From an uncultured Opitutaceae bacterium (GTDB lineage: Bacteria > Verrucomicrobiota > Verrucomicrobiia > Opitutales > Opitutaceae): a DNA stretch of 39,272 nucleotides. This document shows, in pieces, positions 1-10,494 of this stretch. Position 1 is the first letter of the stretch. Every line of letters begins with the position of its first letter. A program made the translations under genes and the position numbers. The stretch lies in NCBI GenBank assembly GCA_964527955.1, contig CAZGOX010000002.1, positions 1 through 39,272 on the forward strand, in the 5' to 3' direction. The notes under the pieces were generated by a model that saw only the letters and a list, made by a program, of their open reading frames with translations, was not told the origin of the DNA and ran no database searches.

Positions 1-1846
<1,846 letters not shown>

Positions 1847-1954: not shown

Positions 1955-3178
1955 ATGGAAAAAAAATCCGCGTCCGCCGCCGTCCCCCCCACCGGGACGC
2001 GGTCGGAATCCCCTCCCCCACAGGCGCCGTCCGACCAGGCCGGCCCCGGTTTTCCCCCGCCCGAGAACGTCATCCACGTCGAGGGTGTGCTCGATATTGA
2101 CACCCTCAAGGGAGGCAACGGCCAGCTGCTCGATCTCGCCAAGAACGGCAAACGCAAGCCGACGGACACCTTCGTCCCCAAGGAGCTGATCCGGCGCTTC
2201 AAGCTGAAGCCCGGCATGCTGGTCGGCGGGACGGCCTTCCCCCCGGAAGGACGCTTTCCCAATCCCAAGATGAAGTTCATCGAGACGGTGGACGGGAAGC
2301 CGCTGGAGGACCGCCGCGCCGCCGTGGAATTTACGTCGCTGACGACCGTCTCCCCGAACCAGCACCTGAAGATGGAGATGAAGGACGGCCGCATGACCAC
2401 CCGCGCCGTGGACCTCTTCTGCCCCATCGGCAAGGGCACCCGCGGCCTGATCGTGGCGCCGCCGCGGACCGGCAAGACGATCCTCCTGCGCGACATGGCT
2501 CTGGGCGTCCTGGAGAACAATCCCGAGTGCCACATCATGATCCTCCTGGTCGACGAGCGGCCCGAGGAGGTCACGGACTTCAAGCGGAGCGTGCCGGCCG
2601 AGATCTGGGCCTCGTCCAACGACGAGCAGATCGAGAACCACATCCACGTCGCCGACCTCTGCATCGAGCGGGCCAAGCGCCTGGTCGAGGTCGGCCGGGA
2701 CGTCGTCCTCTTCGTCGACTCGATCACCCGCCTCTCCCGCGCCCACAACACCCAGCGCAACAGCGGCCGCACCGGCTCGGGCGGCCTCGACGTCCGCGCG
2801 CTGGAGAAGCCCCGCCAGCTCTTCGCCTCGGCCCGCAAGACCGAGGAGGCCGGCTCCCTCACCATCATCGCCTCGGTGCTGGTCGAGACCGGCAGCCGCA
2901 TGGACGACGTCATCTTCCAGGAATTCAAGGGCACGGGCAACATGGAGCTCGTCCTCGACCGCAAGTGCGCCGAGATGCGCCTCTGGCCCGCGATCAATGT
3001 CGCCGCCTCGGGCACCCGCAAGGAGGAGCTCCTGATCGACCCGAAGAAGCTCGACGGCATCCACTTTTTCCGCCGCGCGCTCGTCCAGCAGAAGATCGAG
3101 GAGGCGACCGAGACTATGATCGCCCGCCTTTCCAAGACGAAGACCAACGACGAATTCCTGAAGCTGATCGCCCGCTAG
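1955..3178 (+). CDS. rho: Transcription termination factor Rho, short paralogue (407 aa) lacking a recognisable Rho_N helix bundle
   Basis: Track ORF. Walker [15 protein letters not shown], Walker [27 protein letters not shown]-loop region [31 protein letters not shown] and [21 protein letters not shown]-like segment (VIHVEGVLDI..GNGQLLD...FVPKELIRRFKLKPGMLV) follows directly after a Pro/Ser-rich N-terminus. Confidence 0.9.
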   Translation: MEKKSASAAVPPTGTRSESPPPQAPSDQAGPGFPPPENVIHVEGVLDIDTLKGGNGQLLDLAKNGKRKPTDTFVPKELIRRFKLKPGMLVGGTAFPPEGRFPNPKMKFIETVDGKPLEDRRAAVEFTSLTTVSPNQHLKMEMKDGRMTTRAVDLFCPIGKGTRGLIVAPPRTGKTILLRDMALGVLENNPECHIMILLVDERPEEVTDFKRSVPAEIWASSNDEQIENHIHVADLCIERAKRLVEVGRDVVLFVDSITRLSRAHNTQRNSGRTGSGGLDVRALEKPRQLFASARKTEEAGSLTIIASVLVETGSRMDDVIFQEFKGTGNMELVLDRKCAEMRLWPAINVAASGTRKEELLIDPKKLDGIHFFRRALVQQKIEEATETMIARLSKTKTNDEFLKLIAR

Positions 3179-3221
3179 CATCCTTTTTCCCCTCTCTCCG
3201 TCCTTCCGCCTCCAACCCTGC

Positions 3222-4985
3222 ATGCACAGTTTTTCCGAGCAATGCCTCGACATGGCCCGATCGATCCTCGGCCATAATCTCGACGCCATCCAGCCTGACG
3301 GCACCATCCTCCCCGCCCATGCGGAAGCCGCCCGCGCCGACGAGCCCGGCCACGTCGCCTACGCCCTCGGCGAGTACTACCGCGCGACCGGCGAGACCAC
3401 CCTCAAGGGCCACGACCTGATCGACCTCACCGCCCGCTGCGTGACGGCCCAGATGTTCACCGAGCCGCCGGCCGAGAACGGCCTGGCCTATGCCGCCCTC
3501 GGCCTCCTCTGCTTCGGCCCCTCCAAGGAGCGCAACCCGGTCTGGGAGCGCCTGGTCGAGGAGACCCAGCAGCGGATCGACAAGCAGCTCCTCCACCGCA
3601 GCGACTACGACAACCACTGGCAGGCCTTCAACATCGCCAAGGCGGTCGCCCGCTTCAGCTTCGGCCTGTCCAAGAAGGACGAGACCTCCCGGCTGATCGA
3701 ACAGATGGTCGAGCGGATCAGCCAGACGAGCTCCGCCGGCTTCTTCGACGATGCCGTGGGCAAGGGCATCGGGGGCAACTTCAACCTCTACGGCGTCCTC
3801 GCCCTCATCTTCACCCGCTCGGCCCTGCAGCTCCACGCCAACAGCGGCGTCCGCGACCGCAAGCTGCCGACCCTGCGGACCTACACCGAGAAGTACATCC
3901 GGATGATGCCCGACCTCGTGCGGGCGGACGGCCTCGGCTGGGCGTTCGGCCGCGCCGCGGGCGCCTACGGCCAGATGCACTGCATCACCCTCATCCTGCA
4001 GGGCCTGCGCGACGGCTGGATCCCCGACGAGCAGAAGGGGCGGTACTACGACATCCTGCGCCGGCTCTTCCTCTTCTTCTACGGGACCTACCTCGACCAG
4101 GAGCACGGCTTCCTCGACCTGCGCGACACCGAGCGCACGGCCTACGAGCTGCACACGACCCGCATGGCCAATTTTGACGCCGCGCGCTACCTCTGCCAGT
4201 GGTCCCGCCTGGCCAAGACCGTGCAGATGCCCGCGGGCGCCCCCAAGGTCGAGGCGCCCAAGACCTCCGCCCGCTTCGTCATCTTCGACAAGAGCAACCG
4301 CAAGGAGCAGGGCCTGTTCCTCTACCGCGACGCCGAGAGCGGCCTGCACCTGCAAGTCCCGCTGATCAGCTGCGGCGGCCACCTCTCGAGCGACGCCCTG
4401 CCCTTCCCCCACTGCCCGGGCGTCTTCGACTGGCCGAACAACGTCTACCTGCCGATCATGCTCCCCGAGCTGACCTTCGGCAGCCACGTCACCCTGCCGG
4501 CCTTCTACGGCAAGAACTGCGTCACCGGCCTCGGCCTGCGCAACAGCTTCTTCTTCCGTTACGAGCAGCCCGATCTCATCACGACCAGCGAGGAGATCGT
4601 CAAGGGGCTGGGCAGCGTGAAGGTCCAGTGGAACTTCACCGGCAGCAAGGTCGCCTGCGAGTTCGCCTACACCGTCCGCCAGCAGGTCACGCTCGACCAT
4701 TTCCGCTACGTCCTCGCGGTGGCCGCGCCGCACTCGAAGTACCGCACCGGCGGCTCGCTCGCGCTTGGCCCCGAGGGCTTCCGCTGCACCGTGGCCCGCG
4801 ATGACTTCCAGGCCGCCTGGCAGGCCACCGAGGTGGCCAGCGCCGATGCGACCTACCGCACGAACTACGGCAAGATCCACTACCTCCAGCACCTCGTGCG
4901 CGACCACCCGCTCATCATGCGGCCCGGCCAGACCTATCGCCTCGCGGTCAATTTCGATCCCCAGGTGACGCACGTCGACGGCTGA
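3222..4985 (+). CDS. Hypothetical protein, 587 aa (helix-rich N-terminal ~330 aa, beta-rich C-terminal ~250 aa; no signal peptide seen)
   Basis: Track ORF with natural amino-acid composition (K, N, Y, F, W present), unlike its R/G/A/V-rich antisense shadow 3114..4973. No motif I can name confidently. Confidence 0.75.
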
Positions 4986-4990
4986 GCGGC

Positions 4991-5755
4991 ATGCTCTCCC
5001 GCCGCATCATTCCCTGCCTGGACGTGACCGCGGGGCGGGTTGTCAAGGGCGTGAAGTTCCAGGAGCTGCGCGACGCCGGCGACCCGGTGGAATGCGCCCG
5101 CGCCTATGACGCCCAGGGTGCGGACGAGCTGGTCTTCCTCGACATCACCGCCTCGAGCGACGGTCGGCGGATCATGCGCGACGTCGTGGCCGCGACCGCC
5201 GAGCAGTGCTTCATGCCACTCACCGTCGGCGGCGGCCTCCGCTCCCTCGCCGACATCGAGGCCATGCTCAAGGCCGGTGCCGACAAGGTCTCGCTCAACA
5301 CCTCCGCCATCAAGGAGCCGGACCTGATCCGGGCCGCCTCGGACCGCTTCGGCGCCCAGTGCATCGTCCTCGCGATCGACGCCAAGCACGAGCCCGGCCC
5401 CGAGCCGAAATGGCGGGTCTACACCCACGGGGGCCGGAACCCGACCGAGCTCGACGCCGTGGAGTGGGCCCGGACCGCCGTCGCCCTCGGCGCGGGGGAG
5501 ATCCTCCTCACCAGCATGGACCGCGACGGCACCAAGGCCGGCTACGACCTCGGCCTGACCCAGCAGGTCAGCGACGCCGTCGAGGTCCCCGTCATCGCCA
5601 GCGGCGGCGCCGGAAGCCTGAAGGATTTCGCCGAGGTGCTGGAGCAGGGCCACGCCAGCGCCGTCCTCGCCGCCTCCCTCTTTCATTTCGGCACCTTCAC
5701 GGTGCCGCAGGTGAAGGATTACCTCGTCTCCCGCGGAATCCCGATCCGCCGCTAG
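4991..5755 (+). CDS. hisF: Imidazole glycerol phosphate synthase, cyclase subunit HisF
   Basis: [28 protein letters not shown]...[54 protein letters not shown]. Full-length match to the HisF TIM-barrel pattern. Confidence 0.97.
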
Positions 5756-5759
5756 CCGG

Positions 5760-6296
5760 CTATCGTGCTGCCGGTGCTGGAGCCGGCGGCACCTTCGCTT
5801 TCGGCTCACCCACCAGCATTCCGAGCTGCTCCTGCACCGCGGCGAAGAACTCCGGCGTCATCTCCCCAGCGGGGACCTCGTAGGACTGCTTGGATCGGCC
5901 GTGCTCGAAGATGTCCTTCTCGCCGTCGGCGCTCCGCCCGCGGGACCGGAGGAGTTTCTTCCGCTCCAGCATCAGGGCGAGAAAACGGACCAGGCGGTTC
6001 GTCTCGGGCGTCAGCTCCGTTCCGGGATCAGCCAGGGTAAGGAAGAGGTTCTCGGCGGTCAGCTTCAGCGTCCGCTCGGGATTCTCGTCGTGTGTCTTGG
6101 GCTTGAAGACGTGGATCCAGCGGCAGGCCACCACCCCATCGGGGGTGAAATCCCCGGCCCGGTCGGCCAGGATGTCATGGCGCAGGATTTGCAGCTCGGA
6201 GTCCCTGACCAGGTAGCTCACCACGCGGTCGCCGGCGGCAAAGGGCTGGTGCGAGACAAAGCAGGCGGTGGCGAGGGGCTGCAGATTCAATTCCAT
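5760..6296 (-). CDS. Hypothetical protein, 178 aa
   Basis: Track ORF with plausible composition. Convergent with hisF (4-nt gap) and divergent from the phosphoesterase. No recognisable motif. Confidence 0.6.
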   Translation of the reverse strand: MELNLQPLATACFVSHQPFAAGDRVVSYLVRDSELQILRHDILADRAGDFTPDGVVACRWIHVFKPKTHDENPERTLKLTAENLFLTLADPGTELTPETNRLVRFLALMLERKKLLRSRGRSADGEKDIFEHGRSKQSYEVPAGEMTPEFFAAVQEQLGMLVGEPKAKVPPAPAPAAR

Positions 6297-6392
6297 CGGT
6301 GTTCTTGTTTACTTGCACGTGGGGGCGACGCTAGCAAATTCACTGGGCATGCCGCTGCCGTCCCGCTTCCCGACCGCCAGCTTTCCCTGCGA

Positions 6393-7052
6393 ATGACCGG
6401 GCGCCTCATCGCGATCGGCGACGTCCACGGCTGCCACCTCGAACTGGCCGACCTGATTGCCAAGCTCGAGCTTGGACGGGACGATCGGCTGGTCTTCGTC
6501 GGGGACCTGGTCAACCGCGGTCCGGACAGCAGCAAGGTGCTGGATATCGCCCGGGCCAACAAGGCGATCTCCCTCCTCGGCAACCATGAGCTTCGCCTCC
6601 TGAAGTACCGCCGCACGAACGACCGCAAGTACGCCAAGGAGCACGACCTCGAAACCTACGAGCGGCTTCGCCCCCAGGACTGGGCCTACATGGAGACCAT
6701 GCCCCTCACCTACGAGGAGCCCGAGCTCAACACGGTCTTCGTCCACGGCGGCTTCCTGCCCAACGAGCCCTGGCAGAAGCAGCCCCCCGAGGTCGTCACC
6801 CGGATCCAGGTGGTGGACCGCGACGGCCACCCGGCGAAGCGCTCGGCCGCGCCCGACGCCCCGCTTTGGGCGGACCTGTGGAACGGCCCCCCGTTCGTCA
6901 TCTATGGCCACACGCCCCGGCCGGAGATCTACAAGTTGAAGTGGTCGGTCGGCATCGACACCGCCTGCGTTATGGGCGGCTACCTCACCGCCTGCGTCCT
7001 GCCGGAAAAGCGCTTCGTCCAGGTCAAGGCCCGCCGGGCCTACTACCCCTGA
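6393..7052 (+). CDS. Calcineurin-like metallophosphoesterase (ApaH / PrpE-type diadenosine tetraphosphatase or Ser/Thr phosphatase family)
   Basis: An internal ATG at 6393 of track ORF 5901..7052 gives MTGRLIAIGDVHGC...LVFVGDLVNRGPDS...LLGNHE...VFVHGG...IYGHTP, the canonical GDxHG / GDxxxRG / GNHE / H motifs. The upstream 164 codons are antisense to gene 5760..6296. Confidence 0.85.
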   Translation: MTGRLIAIGDVHGCHLELADLIAKLELGRDDRLVFVGDLVNRGPDSSKVLDIARANKAISLLGNHELRLLKYRRTNDRKYAKEHDLETYERLRPQDWAYMETMPLTYEEPELNTVFVHGGFLPNEPWQKQPPEVVTRIQVVDRDGHPAKRSAAPDAPLWADLWNGPPFVIYGHTPRPEIYKLKWSVGIDTACVMGGYLTACVLPEKRFVQVKARRAYYP

Positions 7053-7056
7053 CCCC

Positions 7057-8046
7057 ATGCCCGAATTTCCTCCCCTCCTGGCCGTGAAGGACGTCAAGGC
7101 GCTCGGCGCCGCCGGCGGCCAGGCGTTCGCCAGCATGCTCGTCGTGCGGAAGCTCGCGACCAAGCTCGCGGCCAACGGCAACCCCTTCCTCAGCCTGGAA
7201 TTGGGCGATCGGAGCGGGTCCTTTACCTGCACGGTCTTCAGCGACAGCCCGGCGTATGAGTCCATCAAGGCGGCCGGCGAGGGCGCCGTCCTGCGGGTCG
7301 AGGGCAAGATCGAATACTACCAGGGGCGCCTGTCGCCGCGCCTGGGGAAGGTCGCCGCGCTGGACGAGGGCAAGCTGAGCGATCCCGCCCTCGTCGCCAA
7401 TCTCGTGGAGAACGCCCCCGAGGACGCGAAGAAGCTGACGGCGGAGCTCGCCGCCTTTGTCACGGGCATCGGCCGGCCGGAGCTGCGCGCCACCGTGCAG
7501 GCGGTCTTCGAGGAGCTGGGGGATGTCTTCCACGTCGCCCCCGCCGCCCTGGGAATGCACCACGCCTACCGGCATGGGCTCCTTGAGCACACGGTCCGGA
7601 TGGCGCGCGCCGCCCAGGCCTTGGCCCCCCTCTATCCGGAAACCGACGCGGACCTCGTGATGGCGGGGGTCCTCCTCCACGACACGGGCAAGGCGATCGA
7701 GTACGAAGGCACCCTTTCGCCCCGCCGCACGCGCCGGGGCATCCTTCAGGGTCATGTCGTCCTCGGCTATCAGCTTGTGCGGAAGGCGGGCTTCAAGGCC
7801 AAGCTCGACGCCGAGCTGCTCGAGCGGCTGGAGCACGTTGTCCTTAGCCACCAGGGAAAGCTCGAGTGGGGCGCGGCCGTCATGGCCGCGACGCCCGAGG
7901 CGGTTCTCGTCTCGATGATCGACAACCTCGACGCCAAGATGGGCATGGTCCAGCGGGCCCTGCGCCAAGCCGCCGCCGGCGAGGAATTCTCGGAGCGGCT
8001 GCCGGGGCTCGAGTCGGCCTTGCTGACCCGCCCCCCGCCGAGCTGA
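7057..8046 (+). CDS. OB-fold + HD-domain protein, YhaM-like 3'-5' exoribonuclease family
   Basis: N-terminal OB-fold-like segment (FLSLELGDRSGSFTCTVFSDS...LRVEGKIEYYQGRLSPRL), then HD-domain motifs HHAYRHGLLEHT and LLHDTGK. Starts 4 nt after the phosphoesterase stop. Confidence 0.8.
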   Translation: MPEFPPLLAVKDVKALGAAGGQAFASMLVVRKLATKLAANGNPFLSLELGDRSGSFTCTVFSDSPAYESIKAAGEGAVLRVEGKIEYYQGRLSPRLGKVAALDEGKLSDPALVANLVENAPEDAKKLTAELAAFVTGIGRPELRATVQAVFEELGDVFHVAPAALGMHHAYRHGLLEHTVRMARAAQALAPLYPETDADLVMAGVLLHDTGKAIEYEGTLSPRRTRRGILQGHVVLGYQLVRKAGFKAKLDAELLERLEHVVLSHQGKLEWGAAVMAATPEAVLVSMIDNLDAKMGMVQRALRQAAAGEEFSERLPGLESALLTRPPPS

Positions 8047-8053
8047 ACCGGCC

Positions 8054-9913
8054 TTACTGCCGGCTGAGGCTCATCAGGAACTCGGCGTTCGACTTCGTCT
8101 TCTTCAGCCGCTGGATCAGCATTTCCATCGACTCGATCGGGCCCAGGCCCTGCATCGCCCGGCGCAGCCCGTAGATGCGCTGCAGTTCCTCGGGGTGATA
8201 GATCAGCTCCTCCTTGCGGGTGCCGGAGCGGTCGATGTTGATCGCCGGGAAGACCCGGCGCTCGACGAGCCCGCGGTCGAGGTGGAGCTCCATGTTGCCC
8301 GTGCCCTTGAATTCCTCGAAGATGACCTCGTCGGCGCGGCTGCCGGTGTCCACGAGGGCCGTCGCGATGATCGTCAGGCTGCCGGCGCCCTCGATGTTGC
8401 GGGCGGCGCCGAAGAAGCGCTTTGGCTTCTGGAGGGCGGTCGCCTCCAGGCCGCCCGACATGATCTTGCCCTGGCTCGAGGCCAGCGCGTTGTAGGCCCG
8501 CGCCAGGCGGGTGATCGAATCCAGCAGGATGACGACGTGCTGGCCCTGCTCGATCAGCCGGCGCGCCTTCTCCCCCACCATCTCGGCGCAGTGCACGTGG
8601 CTTTCGGGGGCCTCGTCAAAGGTCGAGGACACGACCTCGCCCTTGGTGTGGCGCCGGAAATCGGTGACCTCCTCGGGGCGCTCGTCGATCAGGAGGAGGA
8701 TCAGCTTGGTCTCCGGGCTGTTCTCCGAGATCGAATTGGCGATGTTCTGGAGGAGGATGGTCTTGCCGGTGCGCGGCGGGGCCACGATCAGCCCGCGCTG
8801 CCCGTAGCCGATGGGGGTCAGGATATCGACCGCCCGCATCGAGACGTCCTTTTGCACCTCCGGGGCCTCCAGGAGGACCCGCTTGAGGGGATAGTAGGGA
8901 ATCAGCTCCTCGAAGGGCGTAACCTTGGAAATATCCTCCGGATCCATGCCCATCACCTTGTCGATGCGGACCACGGCCGGGCAGCGCTCGCCCTCGCCGG
9001 GCGCCTGGACCAGCACCTCCACCTGGTGGCCCCGCTTGAGGCCGTAGCGGCGGATCAGGCTCTCCGGCAGGAAGGCGTCCTCCGGATAGAGCCGGTAGTT
9101 CACGTGCTCGTGGACGATGAAGGCTCCGCGGTCGGTCAGGTCCACGTATCCGTGGTCGCAGATCGCGCGCTTGGCGTCGCCCGCTTTCGCAAAGATCTGC
9201 CCGAGGAGTTGCTTGCGATTGGGGGCGCCCTCGAATTCGGCGCCGTACTCGCGGGCGAAGGCGGTCAGGTCCGCCAGGGTCAGGGCGTAAAGCTCGTCCA
9301 GGCGGAGCGCCTTGCCCTTGCCGGAGGAAATTTCCTTGGCCAGCGCGTCGAGCGCCGCCACGTCGGCGAAGCGTGAGGGATTGGGCAGTTCGCCGTAGAC
9401 GGGCGCATTGCTCGGCGGGGGCGGTTGCGCCGGATAGGCCGAGCCGCCATGGCCCCCGTGTCCGCCCTGCTGCCAGCCGCCGCCACCGCCGTGGCGGCCA
9501 CCGCGCTTGCGCTTGTTGCGCTTCCATTGGTTGCGGTCCTGCCATTCACCGCGGCCGCCTCCGCCTCCGCCACCCCCGCCGTGGCCACCCTGGCCCTGGG
9601 GACTTTGGCCGCCCTCATACCCCTGGCCGCCGCCCTGGCCGTTGGACGGACCTGCCTCCGGGGCACCGCCGGACGGTGTTTCCGCCGGGGCGGGCGCCTG
9701 CTCGCGCTCGTCGCTGCGGCCAGCCGACTCTTCACGGGCCGGCGCTTCCGCCGTGCCCTCGCCTTCGCGGCGGCGCGGTCCGCGCGTGCGGATCCGGCGG
9801 CCCTTCTGGCCTTCGCCGGCTTCGGCGTCGGTGGGCGGATTGTCTGCGTCGGTCTTCTCGGGGGTTGCCATGTAAGGTGATTGAGCCGCGAAGCGGCTGG
9901 AGGGGATGGACAC
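8054..9913 (-). CDS. rho: Transcription termination factor Rho, full-length paralogue with ~180-aa Gly/Gln/Arg-rich N-terminal extension
   Basis: Rho_N-like [20 protein letters not shown]...KQLLGQIF; [16 protein letters not shown]...[18 protein letters not shown]; [14 protein letters not shown]; [14 protein letters not shown]; [10 protein letters not shown]; [31 protein letters not shown]; [16 protein letters not shown]. The start may instead be the second ATG at 9871 (MATPEK...). Confidence 0.93.
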
Positions 9914-9918
9914 CGCGC

Positions 9919-10494
9919 TCAGGCGAGCGTGGCGACGAGGCGGTCGACCTGGGCCTTGAGGAAGTCAGGTGTGCCCTCGTTCCAAAGGACGAAATCGGAC
10001 AGCTCTATTTTTTTTGCCAGCGGCAATTGCTTGGAAATGCGTTGTCCAGCGAACGTGCGATTTATGCCACACTGCTCCAGCCGAACCAGTTGCTGTTCAG
10101 GAGCACACGCGACGCAGACGATGAAATCAAACCATTTCTCGAGCGATTTTTCAAAGAGAAGCGGCACTTCGACCGCCCAGCGGCCTCCCGGATCCGAGGC
10201 GAGGGCCTCTCGCCACAATGCGAAAACACGCGGATGGGTAAGATCCTCGAGCCACGCTAGTTCCGCATCGTCTGCAAACACCTTGCCCGCCAGGACCCGG
10301 CGATCGACCTCTCCGGAGACGCCGATCACCCCGGGCCCATGGCGCGCCTTCAGTTCCGTGATCACGGCGGGATCGGTCAGCACCTTTTCCCGGATCAGCT
10401 GGTCGGAATCGAGCCGGCGAAAGCCCCGCTGCTCGAAGAGCCGCGCCGCAGTCGACTTGCCGGACCCAAACCCGCCCGTGATGCCGAGGATCAT
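9919..10494 (-). CDS. coaE: Dephospho-CoA kinase
   Basis: MILGITGGFGSGKST P-loop at the N-terminus, LDSD, 191 aa, overall CoaE pattern. Stop lies 5 nt upstream of the rho start, so the two are likely co-transcribed. Confidence 0.92.
   Translation of the reverse strand: MILGITGGFGSGKSTAARLFEQRGFRRLDSDQLIREKVLTDPAVITELKARHGPGVIGVSGEVDRRVLAGKVFADDAELAWLEDLTHPRVFALWREALASDPGGRWAVEVPLLFEKSLEKWFDFIVCVACAPEQQLVRLEQCGINRTFAGQRISKQLPLAKKIELSDFVLWNEGTPDFLKAQVDRLVATLA

Follow-up and report, generated by a model that had tools for sequence, protein, structure and literature searches.

What a second, short Rho might do beside a long one in the same cell is the question raised by a contig of an Opitutaceae bacterium (Verrucomicrobiota, 67% G+C genome), which was analysed over its full 39272 bp (the window). 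Both rho reading frames were recovered where an earlier note had placed them, and full Rho profile matches, low dN/dS values and invariant catalytic residues confirm its claim of two intact Rho termination factors on one Opitutaceae contig. The features used below are:

1..1846, minus strand: acs (acetyl-CoA synthetase, presumed), cut by the contig end and divergent from rho-1; 623-aa open frame
1955..3178, plus strand: rho-1, short Rho of 407 aa ('Type 4 / Group B' architecture); ORF, NF006886 profile
1955..2062, plus strand: Rho-1 residues 1-36, Pro/Ser/Ala-rich tail, predicted to be disordered; composition, pLDDT ~35
2072..2314, plus strand: OB-fold scaffold (Rho-1 residues ~40-120) in which the canonical primary RNA-binding residues are replaced; predicted structure, residue audit
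2399..3010, plus strand: Rho-1 RecA-type ATPase core; Pfam ATP-synt_ab, E=6.7e-21
3222..4985, plus strand: orf587, conserved 587-aa protein, 43 bp downstream of rho-1
8054..9913, minus strand: rho-2, long Rho, maximal ORF of 619 aa ('Type 2' architecture); ORF, NF006886 and TIGR00767
8225..8839, minus strand: Rho-2 ATPase core; Pfam ATP-synt_ab, E=5.9e-27
8936..9154, minus strand: Rho-2 OB-fold RNA-binding domain, partly canonical; Pfam Rho_RNA_bind, E=3.8e-15
9164..9301, minus strand: divergent region of the N-terminal helix bundle (Rho-2 residues ~205-250); NF006886 and E. coli alignment
9344..9871, minus strand: Rho-2 low-complexity N-terminal extension; composition
9919..10494, minus strand: coaE (dephospho-CoA kinase), the gene just before rho-2 on the same strand; Pfam CoaE, E=2.4e-40

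The two rho genes lie 5 kb apart on opposite strands, and rho-1, which diverges from acs, is its own transcription unit, separate from rho-2. The ~108-bp gap between acs and rho-1 is presumed to be the rho-1 promoter region; the acs frame I take to be Acs from recognising its sequence, not from a family scan.

On Rho-1, the NCBIfam profile NF006886 ('transcription termination factor Rho') scored 433.7 bits (cutoff 315) over profile positions 46-412 only. Since positions 1-45 were unmatched, the N-terminal helix bundle is absent, in agreement with the earlier note; at its site sits the Pro/Ser/Ala-rich tail of the first ~36 residues, where a search of residues 1-36 returned no Pfam match at E<=10. 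A longer in-frame N-terminus is impossible because an upstream stop codon bounds the ORF and the divergent acs lies ~108 bp upstream. The tail differs in length among orthologues (maximal ORFs of 393-482 aa). Beyond it, the OB-fold scaffold is retained in the predicted structure, with strands at residues 40-48, 56-59, 72-74, 89-95 and 105-112 plus one helix (pLDDT 70-85), and the modest quality of the model as a whole (mean pLDDT 61) is due to a shallow alignment. Rho-1 aligns with solved Rho structures from E. coli (Rho-1 residues 43-406, E ~1e-93) and M. tuberculosis, the ATPase core end to end, and the top PDB match of its core is M. tuberculosis Rho, 7OQH.

A missing N-terminal domain, and a Pfam Rho_RNA_bind score of 26.7 bits that falls just short of the cutoff of 27, might point to a duplicate in decay, a pseudogene or an artefact of assembly, but the data refute such an origin. 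Independent genomes and MAGs, the cultured Horticoccus and Cephaloticoccus among them, carry 78 intact Rho-1 orthologues with 78-92% identity, all catalytic residues are invariant, and the dN/dS of the core is 0.05-0.13 for Rho-1 (0.04-0.15 for Rho-2). At 49% identity over 347 residues (E=2e-104), Rho-1 is no mis-assembled copy of Rho-2 either. Pseudogene, hidden Rho_N and assembly duplicate, the three outcomes that would have overturned the earlier note's view, all fail for Rho-1. The exact protein (P0001) is present in NCBI and JGI, and, compared over the same pairs of genomes, the Rho-1 core shows a lower dN than hisF, coaE and a YhaM-like gene.

Short-Rho orthologues were found across the class Opitutae, in Opitutaceae, Oleiharenicola, Didemnitutus, Puniceicoccales and GWF2_51_19. 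In a distance-based Rho tree, the short clade and the Rho-2 clade were each monophyletic in 200/200 bootstraps and never sisters (0/200), and the split is therefore old, although the long branch of the short clade makes the deep branching unreliable. Where the earlier note had asked whether Rho-1 is an old, lineage-wide paralogue or a recent duplicate, the tree points to the former. The window and 11 related loci have both genes on a single contig, often within 10 kb, with co-occurrence scored only where the two share a contig; several contigs of equal size also recur in the Rho-1 and Rho-2 match lists. Judged by these comparisons, the gene pair appears to be conserved across this verrucomicrobial class, and Rho-1 is a paralogue that split off long ago and is strongly constrained.

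The pairing as such is no novelty: it is already published and belongs to a catalogued kind, in which a long Rho of 'Type 2' is accompanied by a short one of 'Type 4 / Group B'. Second rho genes without the N-terminal domain are the 'Group B' of D'Heygère 2013, where the pairing is Group A/B, and the 'Type 4' Rho, paired with Type 2, of Moreira et al. 2024 (NAR, PMC11347177), who surveyed 2730 genomes and counted 116 with at least two rho genes, 30 of these from the PVC group. Rho-1 resembles these proteins in lacking the helix bundle while having an OB-type domain and a complete ATPase, in its conserved catalytic and bicyclomycin-pocket residues, in its co-occurrence with a long Rho bearing extra low-complexity regions, and in belonging to a high-GC genome with an old rather than recent duplication. 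The Opitutae short clade differs from them in that every canonical primary-binding-site residue is replaced. NCBIfam also holds a family of short paralogues without the N-terminal domain, NF041509 ('paralog_Rho2: transcription termination factor Rho, short form'), which aligns with Rho-1 residues 68-403 but scores only 379 bits on Rho-1 and 382-402 bits on other Opitutae short forms, against a cutoff of 628. The Opitutae short clade is not this family and is therefore annotated simply as 'Rho'.

The most informative difference between the paralogues, passed over in the earlier note, is that the residues of the primary RNA-binding site are completely replaced in Rho-1. Both paralogues share Walker A and Walker B, a catalytic Glu, an Arg finger and the Q- and R-loops, which bears out the earlier note on Walker A/B and the Q-loop, and K184, T185, E211, R212, D265, R269, R353 and R366 are invariant in 78/78 Rho-1 and 9/9 Rho-2 orthologues. 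Every ATPase, Q-loop and R-loop residue is shown to be kept in Rho-1, the changes K283R and T286S in the Q-loop and K326R in the R-loop all being conservative; ATPase, both loops and Arg finger are the same as in E. coli Rho (PDB 1PVO, 3ICE and others). At the true R-loop (E. coli 322-326) both paralogues have the sequence TGSR. The 'R-loop region' in which the earlier note saw them differ (NSGRTGSGGLD... and its Rho-2 counterpart) aligns with E. coli ~279-301, which by established numbering is the Q-loop.

Equivalents of E. coli residues 1-47, F62, F64, R66, E108, R109 and Y110 are, in contrast, missing from Rho-1. Across the 78 orthologues the replacements are F62N, F64Q, R66L/I/V, E108F, R109P and Y110N, turning GFGFLR into GNGQLL and the E108-R109-Y110 region into an F-P-N-P-K motif. 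Rho-1 is thereby shown to have lost both canonical RNA-capture devices: the helix bundle, and the pockets by which the primary site binds pyrimidines. None of 128 short-clade proteins has an aromatic residue at position 64 or an Arg at position 66, while F64 is found in 38/50 and R66 in 44/50 other Rho representatives; the loss of bundle and primary-site residues dates back to the ancestor of the short clade as a whole. What is new here is a Rho that keeps the motor residues and OB scaffold but has neither the bundle nor the canonical primary RNA-binding residues.

Rho-2 is closer to the textbook protein. NF006886 and TIGR00767 scored 529.8 and 525.9 bits, both above cutoff, over profile positions 3-412. 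The length of 619 aa given in the earlier note holds for the maximal, GTG-started ORF, while the database protein (P0394, same contig) has 605 aa with an ATG at 9871; orthologues span 586-690 aa. The long low-complexity extension described there was found as well, with ~175 residues (G 25%, A 11%, P 11%, R 10%), a poly-Gly run and a KRNKRKR patch. This Gly/Arg/Pro-rich region before the core resembles that of 'Type 2' Rho from Bacteroides thetaiotaomicron, Mycobacterium tuberculosis and Micrococcus luteus, except that it lies ahead of the N-terminal bundle (an 'initial region') and does not interrupt the N-terminal domain as an insertion. A 'full Rho_N' was only partly upheld: the bundle is recognisable by the full-length NCBIfam profile (positions 3-45) and by alignment to E. 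coli residues 1-47 (38/47 positions aligned) only, whereas Pfam Rho_N (PF07498) gave no match even at E<=10. Of the primary-site residues F64, E108 and R109 are kept and, besides an extra disordered N-terminus of ~190 residues, R66V and Y110C set Rho-2 apart from E. coli Rho. The coaE-rho arrangement is as the earlier note had it, and coaE-rho2 adjacency recurs in those related loci that extend far enough.

The best reading of the whole, to which I give a probability of roughly 0.45, is that Rho-2 is conventional and Rho-1 a second RNA translocase loaded without a primary binding site. Rho-2, with its disordered Gly/Arg-rich extension, divergent bundle, partly kept primary site and ATPase ring, would act as a conventional termination factor. 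Rho-1 would be an active hexameric RNA translocase whose Q- and R-loops may grip RNA in the central channel; C-rich rut sites would probably not be selectable by Rho-1 alone, and RNA would therefore have to be loaded by a route that bypasses the primary site, with the elongation complex, NusG or another protein as candidate loaders. If true, the cell would possess, besides Rho-2, another motor for termination or RNA remodelling, one whose targets differ in range. The earlier note's interpretation of the pair is partly supported: two intact, selected paralogues, the short one without Rho_N, are upheld, and the roles that it lists (sub-functionalisation, hetero-hexamers, a regulatory paralogue) are all candidates.

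To say that Rho-1 cannot capture RNA may prove too strong, because the RNP3 region has not simply decayed but is replaced by a conserved motif, and the OB cleft may still bind RNA or another ligand with new specificity. Rho-1 might then be a stand-alone terminator whose remodelled cleft recognises something other than YC dinucleotides. The apparent retention of the scaffold in the model would fit, as would N62, Q64, F80, F108 and N110, fixed within Opitutaceae (77-78 of 78 orthologues), the class-wide [F/Y]-P-N-P-[K/R] motif (P in 128/128 short-clade proteins) and other high-GC Rho proteins without a conserved RNP1 motif (Moreira et al. 2024, PMC11347177). I nevertheless consider this unlikely: positions 62 and 64 are variable at class level (62 takes rank 11 in variability among the 76 OB positions), a pattern that resembles relaxed selection more than redirected selection, the aromatic stacking platform at 64 and the Arg at 66 are gone, and so is the bundle, which E. 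coli deletion studies found to be needed for RNA binding (cited in PMC11347177). An altered specificity could suit the 67% G+C genome or a particular transcript set.

The conserved motif also bears on a possible, if doubtful, role of Rho-1 in hetero-hexamers, as a purely passive subunit would not need it. Rho-2 could supply the functions missing from Rho-1 in such mixed rings, giving bundle, primary site and disordered extension in trans, with the ratio of the two tuning RNA capture. Moreira et al. (2024, PMC11347177) already proposed hetero-hexamers for Type 4 and Type 2 pairs, both genes co-occur throughout the lineage at often short distance, and the inter-subunit ATP-site residues, Arg finger included, are identical in both paralogues. 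Against this stand the low mutual identity after very long separation and the separate transcription units on opposite strands, the two genes not being adjacent in many genomes.

As for the neighbours of Rho-1, orf587 matched no Pfam or NCBIfam family at threshold, its sole family signal being a weak, sub-threshold match to DUF2264. In 78/83 rho-selected loci it is the next gene 3' of the short rho, in the same orientation (gaps of 34-444 bp), and the pair is kept in Puniceicoccales and GWF2_51_19 contigs where all other neighbours differ, which might suggest a two-gene module with orf587 as loader, regulator or substrate-handling partner of Rho-1, outside general termination. This is improbable, since the short rho precedes orf587 in only 37 of 61 orf587-selected loci (metagenome loci with enough upstream sequence), acs abuts orf587 without a rho in 13 of them, three rho-1 loci have no adjacent orf587, and the DUF2264 match says nothing on nucleic acids. 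orf587 is a frequent but not obligate neighbour of rho-1. On the other side, acs adjoins rho1 upstream in 69 of 72 rho1-selected loci.

Two Rho genes were found on the contig, as the earlier note had claimed, and the coaE-rho arrangement that it described for the longer one was recovered as well:

1955..3178, plus strand: rho-1, complete Rho-family ORF of 407 aa
8054..9913, minus strand: rho-2, complete Rho-family ORF of 619 aa
9919..10494, minus strand: coaE, directly upstream of rho-2

Both products scored above the cutoff of 315 bits for NF006886, 'transcription termination factor Rho' (Rho-1 433.7 bits, Rho-2 529.8 bits), and they share 49% identity across 347 residues (E=2e-104). For TIGR00767 (cutoff 509.45), Rho-2 passed at 525.9 bits and Rho-1 failed at 427.4 bits. 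The Pfam families ATP-synt_ab and Rho_RNA_bind were matched in both; the OB and ATPase domains of Rho-2 lie above the Pfam thresholds, and the Rho_RNA_bind match of Rho-1 is borderline (26.7 bits against a cutoff of 27). The length of 619 aa given previously for Rho-2 holds for the maximal, GTG-started ORF, but the database protein from this contig (P0394) is called at 605 aa from an ATG at 9871. The window seems to span its 39,272-bp contig from end to end, as the exact Rho-1 and Rho-2 proteins are on record for a contig that long. By evolutionary criteria, both rho genes were confirmed as real and functional.

The roles of individual residues in E. coli Rho, whose numbering is followed here, are well established. 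K184, T185, E211, R212, D265, R269, R353, and R366 are invariant in Rho-1, Rho-2, and their orthologues (78 and 9, respectively), so that the earlier statement that Walker A/B and the Q-loop are kept in both paralogues withstood this residue audit. Each protein has the complete set of a RecA-type ATPase (Walker A/B, the catalytic Glu211, Arg212, and the arginine finger R366), and the bicyclomycin-pocket and catalytic residues P180, K184, E211, D265, S266, G337, and L320 are kept; from the retained pocket, bicyclomycin sensitivity is predicted for Rho-1 as well as Rho-2. The secondary RNA-binding site in the central channel, formed by Q-loop and R-loop, is present in both with conservative changes: in the Q-loop, Rho-1 has R in place of K283 where Rho-2 retains K, both proteins have S for T286, and G287 and G288 are kept; the R-loop retains T-G-S, with R instead of K at position 326 in either protein. 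The strings previously compared as the 'R-loop region' were misassigned, as they align to E. coli residues ~279-301, which by the established numbering form the Q-loop; the true R-loop reads T-G-S-R in both paralogues.

Selection on the core regions was estimated by comparing the contig with nine related genomes. For Rho-1, the core gave dN of 0.033-0.099, dS of 0.52-2.0, and dN/dS of roughly 0.05-0.13, and the Rho-2 core gave dN of 0.034-0.12, dS of 0.59-1.08, and dN/dS of roughly 0.04-0.15; for matched genome pairs, dN of both rho cores was lower than that of hisF, coaE, and a YhaM-like gene. A pseudogene or an assembly duplicate was ruled out for rho-1 by the 49% identity, the intact orthologues, and the dN/dS of 0.05-0.13. 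In Rho-1, the Rho motor and the RNA site of its central channel are thus both intact, and the motor is under strong constraint.

The two proteins differ at their N-termini. The match to NF006886 starts at profile position 46 in Rho-1 and at position 3 in Rho-2, residues aligned to positions 1-45 are absent from Rho-1, and Pfam Rho_N (PF07498) was not matched in it even at E<=10, which bears out the earlier view that Rho-1 is without the N-terminal three-helix bundle of the Rho family. What precedes its OB domain is a tail of ~36-40 aa, rich in Pro, Ser, and Ala and modelled as disordered. A hidden Rho_N upstream of rho-1 or in another frame was ruled out, given that a stop codon bounds the ORF, a ~108-bp gap and then the divergent acs follow, and all 78 orthologue ORFs are short. 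With acs divergent, rho-1 probably is driven by a promoter region of its own; a scan for promoter and terminator consensus around rho-1 gave no match, a negative that is uninformative for this phylum. Across the whole contig, a tRNA scan found no tRNA gene and an Rfam scan found no family at gathering score. Rho-2 does have the long low-complexity extension ascribed to it (~175-190 residues, 25% Gly), located ahead of a bundle-like segment. Its description as a full Rho_N + CSD + ATPase protein stood for the OB and ATPase domains and for a full-length profile match from position 3, but Pfam did not detect Rho_N in the N-terminal segment even at E<=10, and the bundle-like segment was recognised only via the full-length NCBIfam profile and alignment to E. 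coli residues 1-47.

The primary RNA-binding site on the OB fold (F62/F64/R66, Y80, and E108-R109-Y110) is not retained in Rho-1. GFGFLR has become GNGQLL (F62N, F64Q, R66L/I/V), Y80 is F, and E108-R109-Y110 is F-P-N, with the replaced states fixed in 77-78 of the 78 orthologues. No member of the short clade (n=128) has an aromatic residue at position 64 or Arg at position 66, whereas the other Rho representatives (n=50) have F64 in 38/50 and R66 in 44/50 cases; the loss of the primary site is ancestral to the whole short clade. The OB scaffold is kept, with five strands and the characteristic helix modelled at pLDDT 70-85 in a model that is modest as a whole (mean pLDDT 61). Neither the helix bundle nor the pyrimidine pockets of canonical Rho are present in Rho-1.

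My preferred reading, tentatively held at a probability of roughly 45%, is that Rho-1 is a ring-forming RNA translocase, that selecting rut sites in the manner of E. coli Rho would be beyond it, and that it would therefore have to load onto RNA by another route. One alternative is that the Rho-1 OB cleft was remodelled towards a new specificity. This idea is kept alive by the RNP3 region of the short clade, where a new [F/Y]-P-N-P-[K/R] motif is conserved (P in 128/128 and N in 124/128 sequences); positions 62 and 64 are variable at class level, 62 ranking 11th most variable among 76 OB positions, and this variability looks like relaxed selection. Overall, I regard a new specificity as improbable.

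Rho-2 retains part of the canonical primary site, namely F64, E108, and R109; R66V and Y110C are found in this contig and in 9/9 orthologues, and position 80 is F here and Y in the orthologues. The R66V change in its OB domain (8936-9154, minus strand) departs from the R66 present in 44 of the 50 other representatives. Even the main Rho of this lineage may capture RNA in an unusual way.

The proteins closest to Rho-1 and 80 genome loci all belonged to Opitutaceae or Opitutales (Verrucomicrobiota), including the cultured Horticoccus and Cephaloticoccus. Rho-1 orthologues were 78-92% identical and always short (maximal ORFs of 393-482 aa). In an exhaustive search of representatives, the only other 50%-identity cluster near Rho-1 was that of P0122, a short Rho of 393 aa with 55% identity; every representative beyond it was at most 51% identical to Rho-1. 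Relatives of P0122 come from Puniceicoccales, Oleiharenicola, Didemnitutus, 'Opitutae bacterium', and 'Verrucomicrobia bacterium GWF2_51_19', and since all of them are short (373-412 aa), the short Rho is a class-wide feature of Opitutae.

A neighbour-joining tree of 101 Rho sequences (357 core columns, 200 bootstraps) recovered the short clade as monophyletic in 200/200 replicates and the Rho-2 clade likewise in 200/200, and grouped the two as sisters in 0/200. A recent duplication of Rho-2 within the family was consequently ruled out, as it also was by distance: Rho-1 is 49% identical to Rho-2 and at most 51% to any other Rho. The deep placement of the short clade in this distance tree cannot be trusted; the branch of this clade is longer, the mean distance to other Rho being 0.87-0.92 for the short clade and 0.74-0.76 for Rho-2. 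The question of an old, lineage-wide paralogue or a recent duplicate was settled in favour of the former by the absent sister grouping and the short orthologues across Opitutae. The survey of related genomes for co-occurrence, also proposed earlier, found the long Rho on the same contig as short rho here and in 11 related loci; coaE lies upstream of long rho wherever the sequence extends that far, and several contigs seem common to the match lists of Rho-1 and Rho-2.

Second Rho genes ('Group B') were reportedly catalogued earlier, by D'Heygère in 2013. Moreira et al. 2024 (PMC11347177) describe at least two rho genes in 116/2730 genomes, 62 of them Actinomycetota and 30 of the PVC group, with short copies that keep catalytic and bicyclomycin residues, and they infer ancient duplications and suggest hetero-hexamers. 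Like Type 4 / Group B proteins, Rho-1 has no N-terminal domain, retains the OB domain and an ATPase with catalytic and bicyclomycin-pocket residues, and co-occurs with a longer Rho following an old duplication (11 other loci; sisters in 0/200). Its pre-OB tail of ~36-40 aa is close to their 25-aa limit for an additional region of defined type ahead of the RNA-binding domain, so that a '2d' label is also conceivable in their scheme. Like Type 2 proteins, Rho-2 has an additional region of >25 aa, its OB and ATPase domains being found by Pfam and its N-terminal domain by the full-length profile only. Rho-1 corresponds to Type 4 and Rho-2 to Type 2; the pair fits what Moreira et al. 2024 describe and is therefore an instance of an already known kind. 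Membership of the Opitutae short Rho in NF041509 (paralog_Rho2, a short form) was ruled out on score: Rho-1 reached 379.1 bits and the other Opitutae short forms P0122, L081, and L082 reached 382-402, against a cutoff of 628.

The main rival to an independently loading Rho-1 ring is that Rho-1 and Rho-2 assemble into mixed rings, an idea already published for pairs of short and long Rho by Moreira et al. 2024. I consider this possible but rather unlikely. With such gene pairs and the hetero-hexamer hypothesis both published before, the discovery is incremental. Its added value is a sharper statement on the short paralogue, namely that the motor was kept and RNA capture lost, and relative to the main text of Moreira et al. 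2024 the linkage of short rho to the following gene is new:

3222-4985, plus strand: orf587, 587 aa, 43 bp after rho-1

The orf587 product is 80-91% conserved across Opitutaceae and 47% and 58% over its full length in the Puniceicoccales and GWF2_51_19 contigs, with many invariant residues, including an F-P-H-C-P-G-x-F-D-W-P stretch. No Pfam or NCBIfam family matched at threshold, a weak sub-threshold match to DUF2264 covers residues ~100-244, and no sequence relative was found in the PDB. A single-sequence model, unusable at a mean pLDDT of 39, suggested a beta-rich C-terminus behind an all-helical N-terminal part of ~335 residues.

Among loci selected via rho, orf587 follows short rho in 78/83, and it lies beside short rho even in the Puniceicoccales and GWF2_51_19 contigs, where every other neighbour is different. 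This would suit a dedicated two-component system in which the short Rho is a ring translocase fully uncoupled from rut recognition: a protein adaptor, and not RNA sequence, would then recruit a Rho-derived motor, for example to particular transcripts or R-loops. A reciprocal test used 80 loci chosen via orf587, in which 61 metagenome loci had enough upstream sequence, and short rho was upstream of orf587 in only 37 of these 61. In 13 orf587-selected loci (among L088-L118 and others), acs on the minus strand directly abuts orf587 on the plus strand, which is the layout seen here minus rho-1; either short rho accordingly entered an ancestral acs|orf587 junction, or some lineages have since lost it from there. 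Conversely, three rho-1 loci have no orf587 in the available downstream sequence (L030, L031 on a 1.1-Mb contig of 'Opitutus sp.', and L062), and their short rho is ~90% identical over residues 35-407. Together, these three sets of loci weakened the case for orf587 as an obligate Rho-1 partner. I therefore regard orf587 as a frequent neighbour that may or may not be functionally linked to Rho-1, and the two-component system as very improbable.

With its fully conserved, strongly constrained motor and both RNA-capture devices gone, the Opitutae short clade is a clean natural experiment, bearing on the live question of how far Rho depends on its primary binding site as against delivery by the elongation complex. 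No functional study of a Rho paralogue was found in the literature searched, and a 2025 review of Rho-dependent termination leaves Rho paralogues unmentioned. Experimental access is offered by the cultured genera Horticoccus, Cephaloticoccus, and Oleiharenicola within the clade. In current annotation, the Opitutae short Rho simply carries the name 'transcription termination factor Rho' and falls outside NCBI's only short-form model (NF041509).

Further genes were noted between the two rho genes. On the minus strand, orf178 (5760-6296, 178 aa) matched nothing in Pfam or NCBIfam and is 47-72% conserved at the same position across Opitutaceae loci. A metallophosphatase gene (6387-7052, plus strand), syntenic in related loci, encodes a protein similar to ApaH/PrpE bis(5'-nucleosyl)-tetraphosphatases (NF001204, 92 bits against a cutoff of 176). 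The gene at 7057-8046 (plus strand) encodes an OB-fold and HD-domain protein resembling the 3'-5' exoribonuclease YhaM (NF010007, 185.9 bits against a cutoff of 460). This gene is convergent with rho-2, 8 bp from the rho-2 stop codon, and most related loci likewise have it between the two rho genes, so that a putative RNA-degrading enzyme adjoins the canonical Rho.
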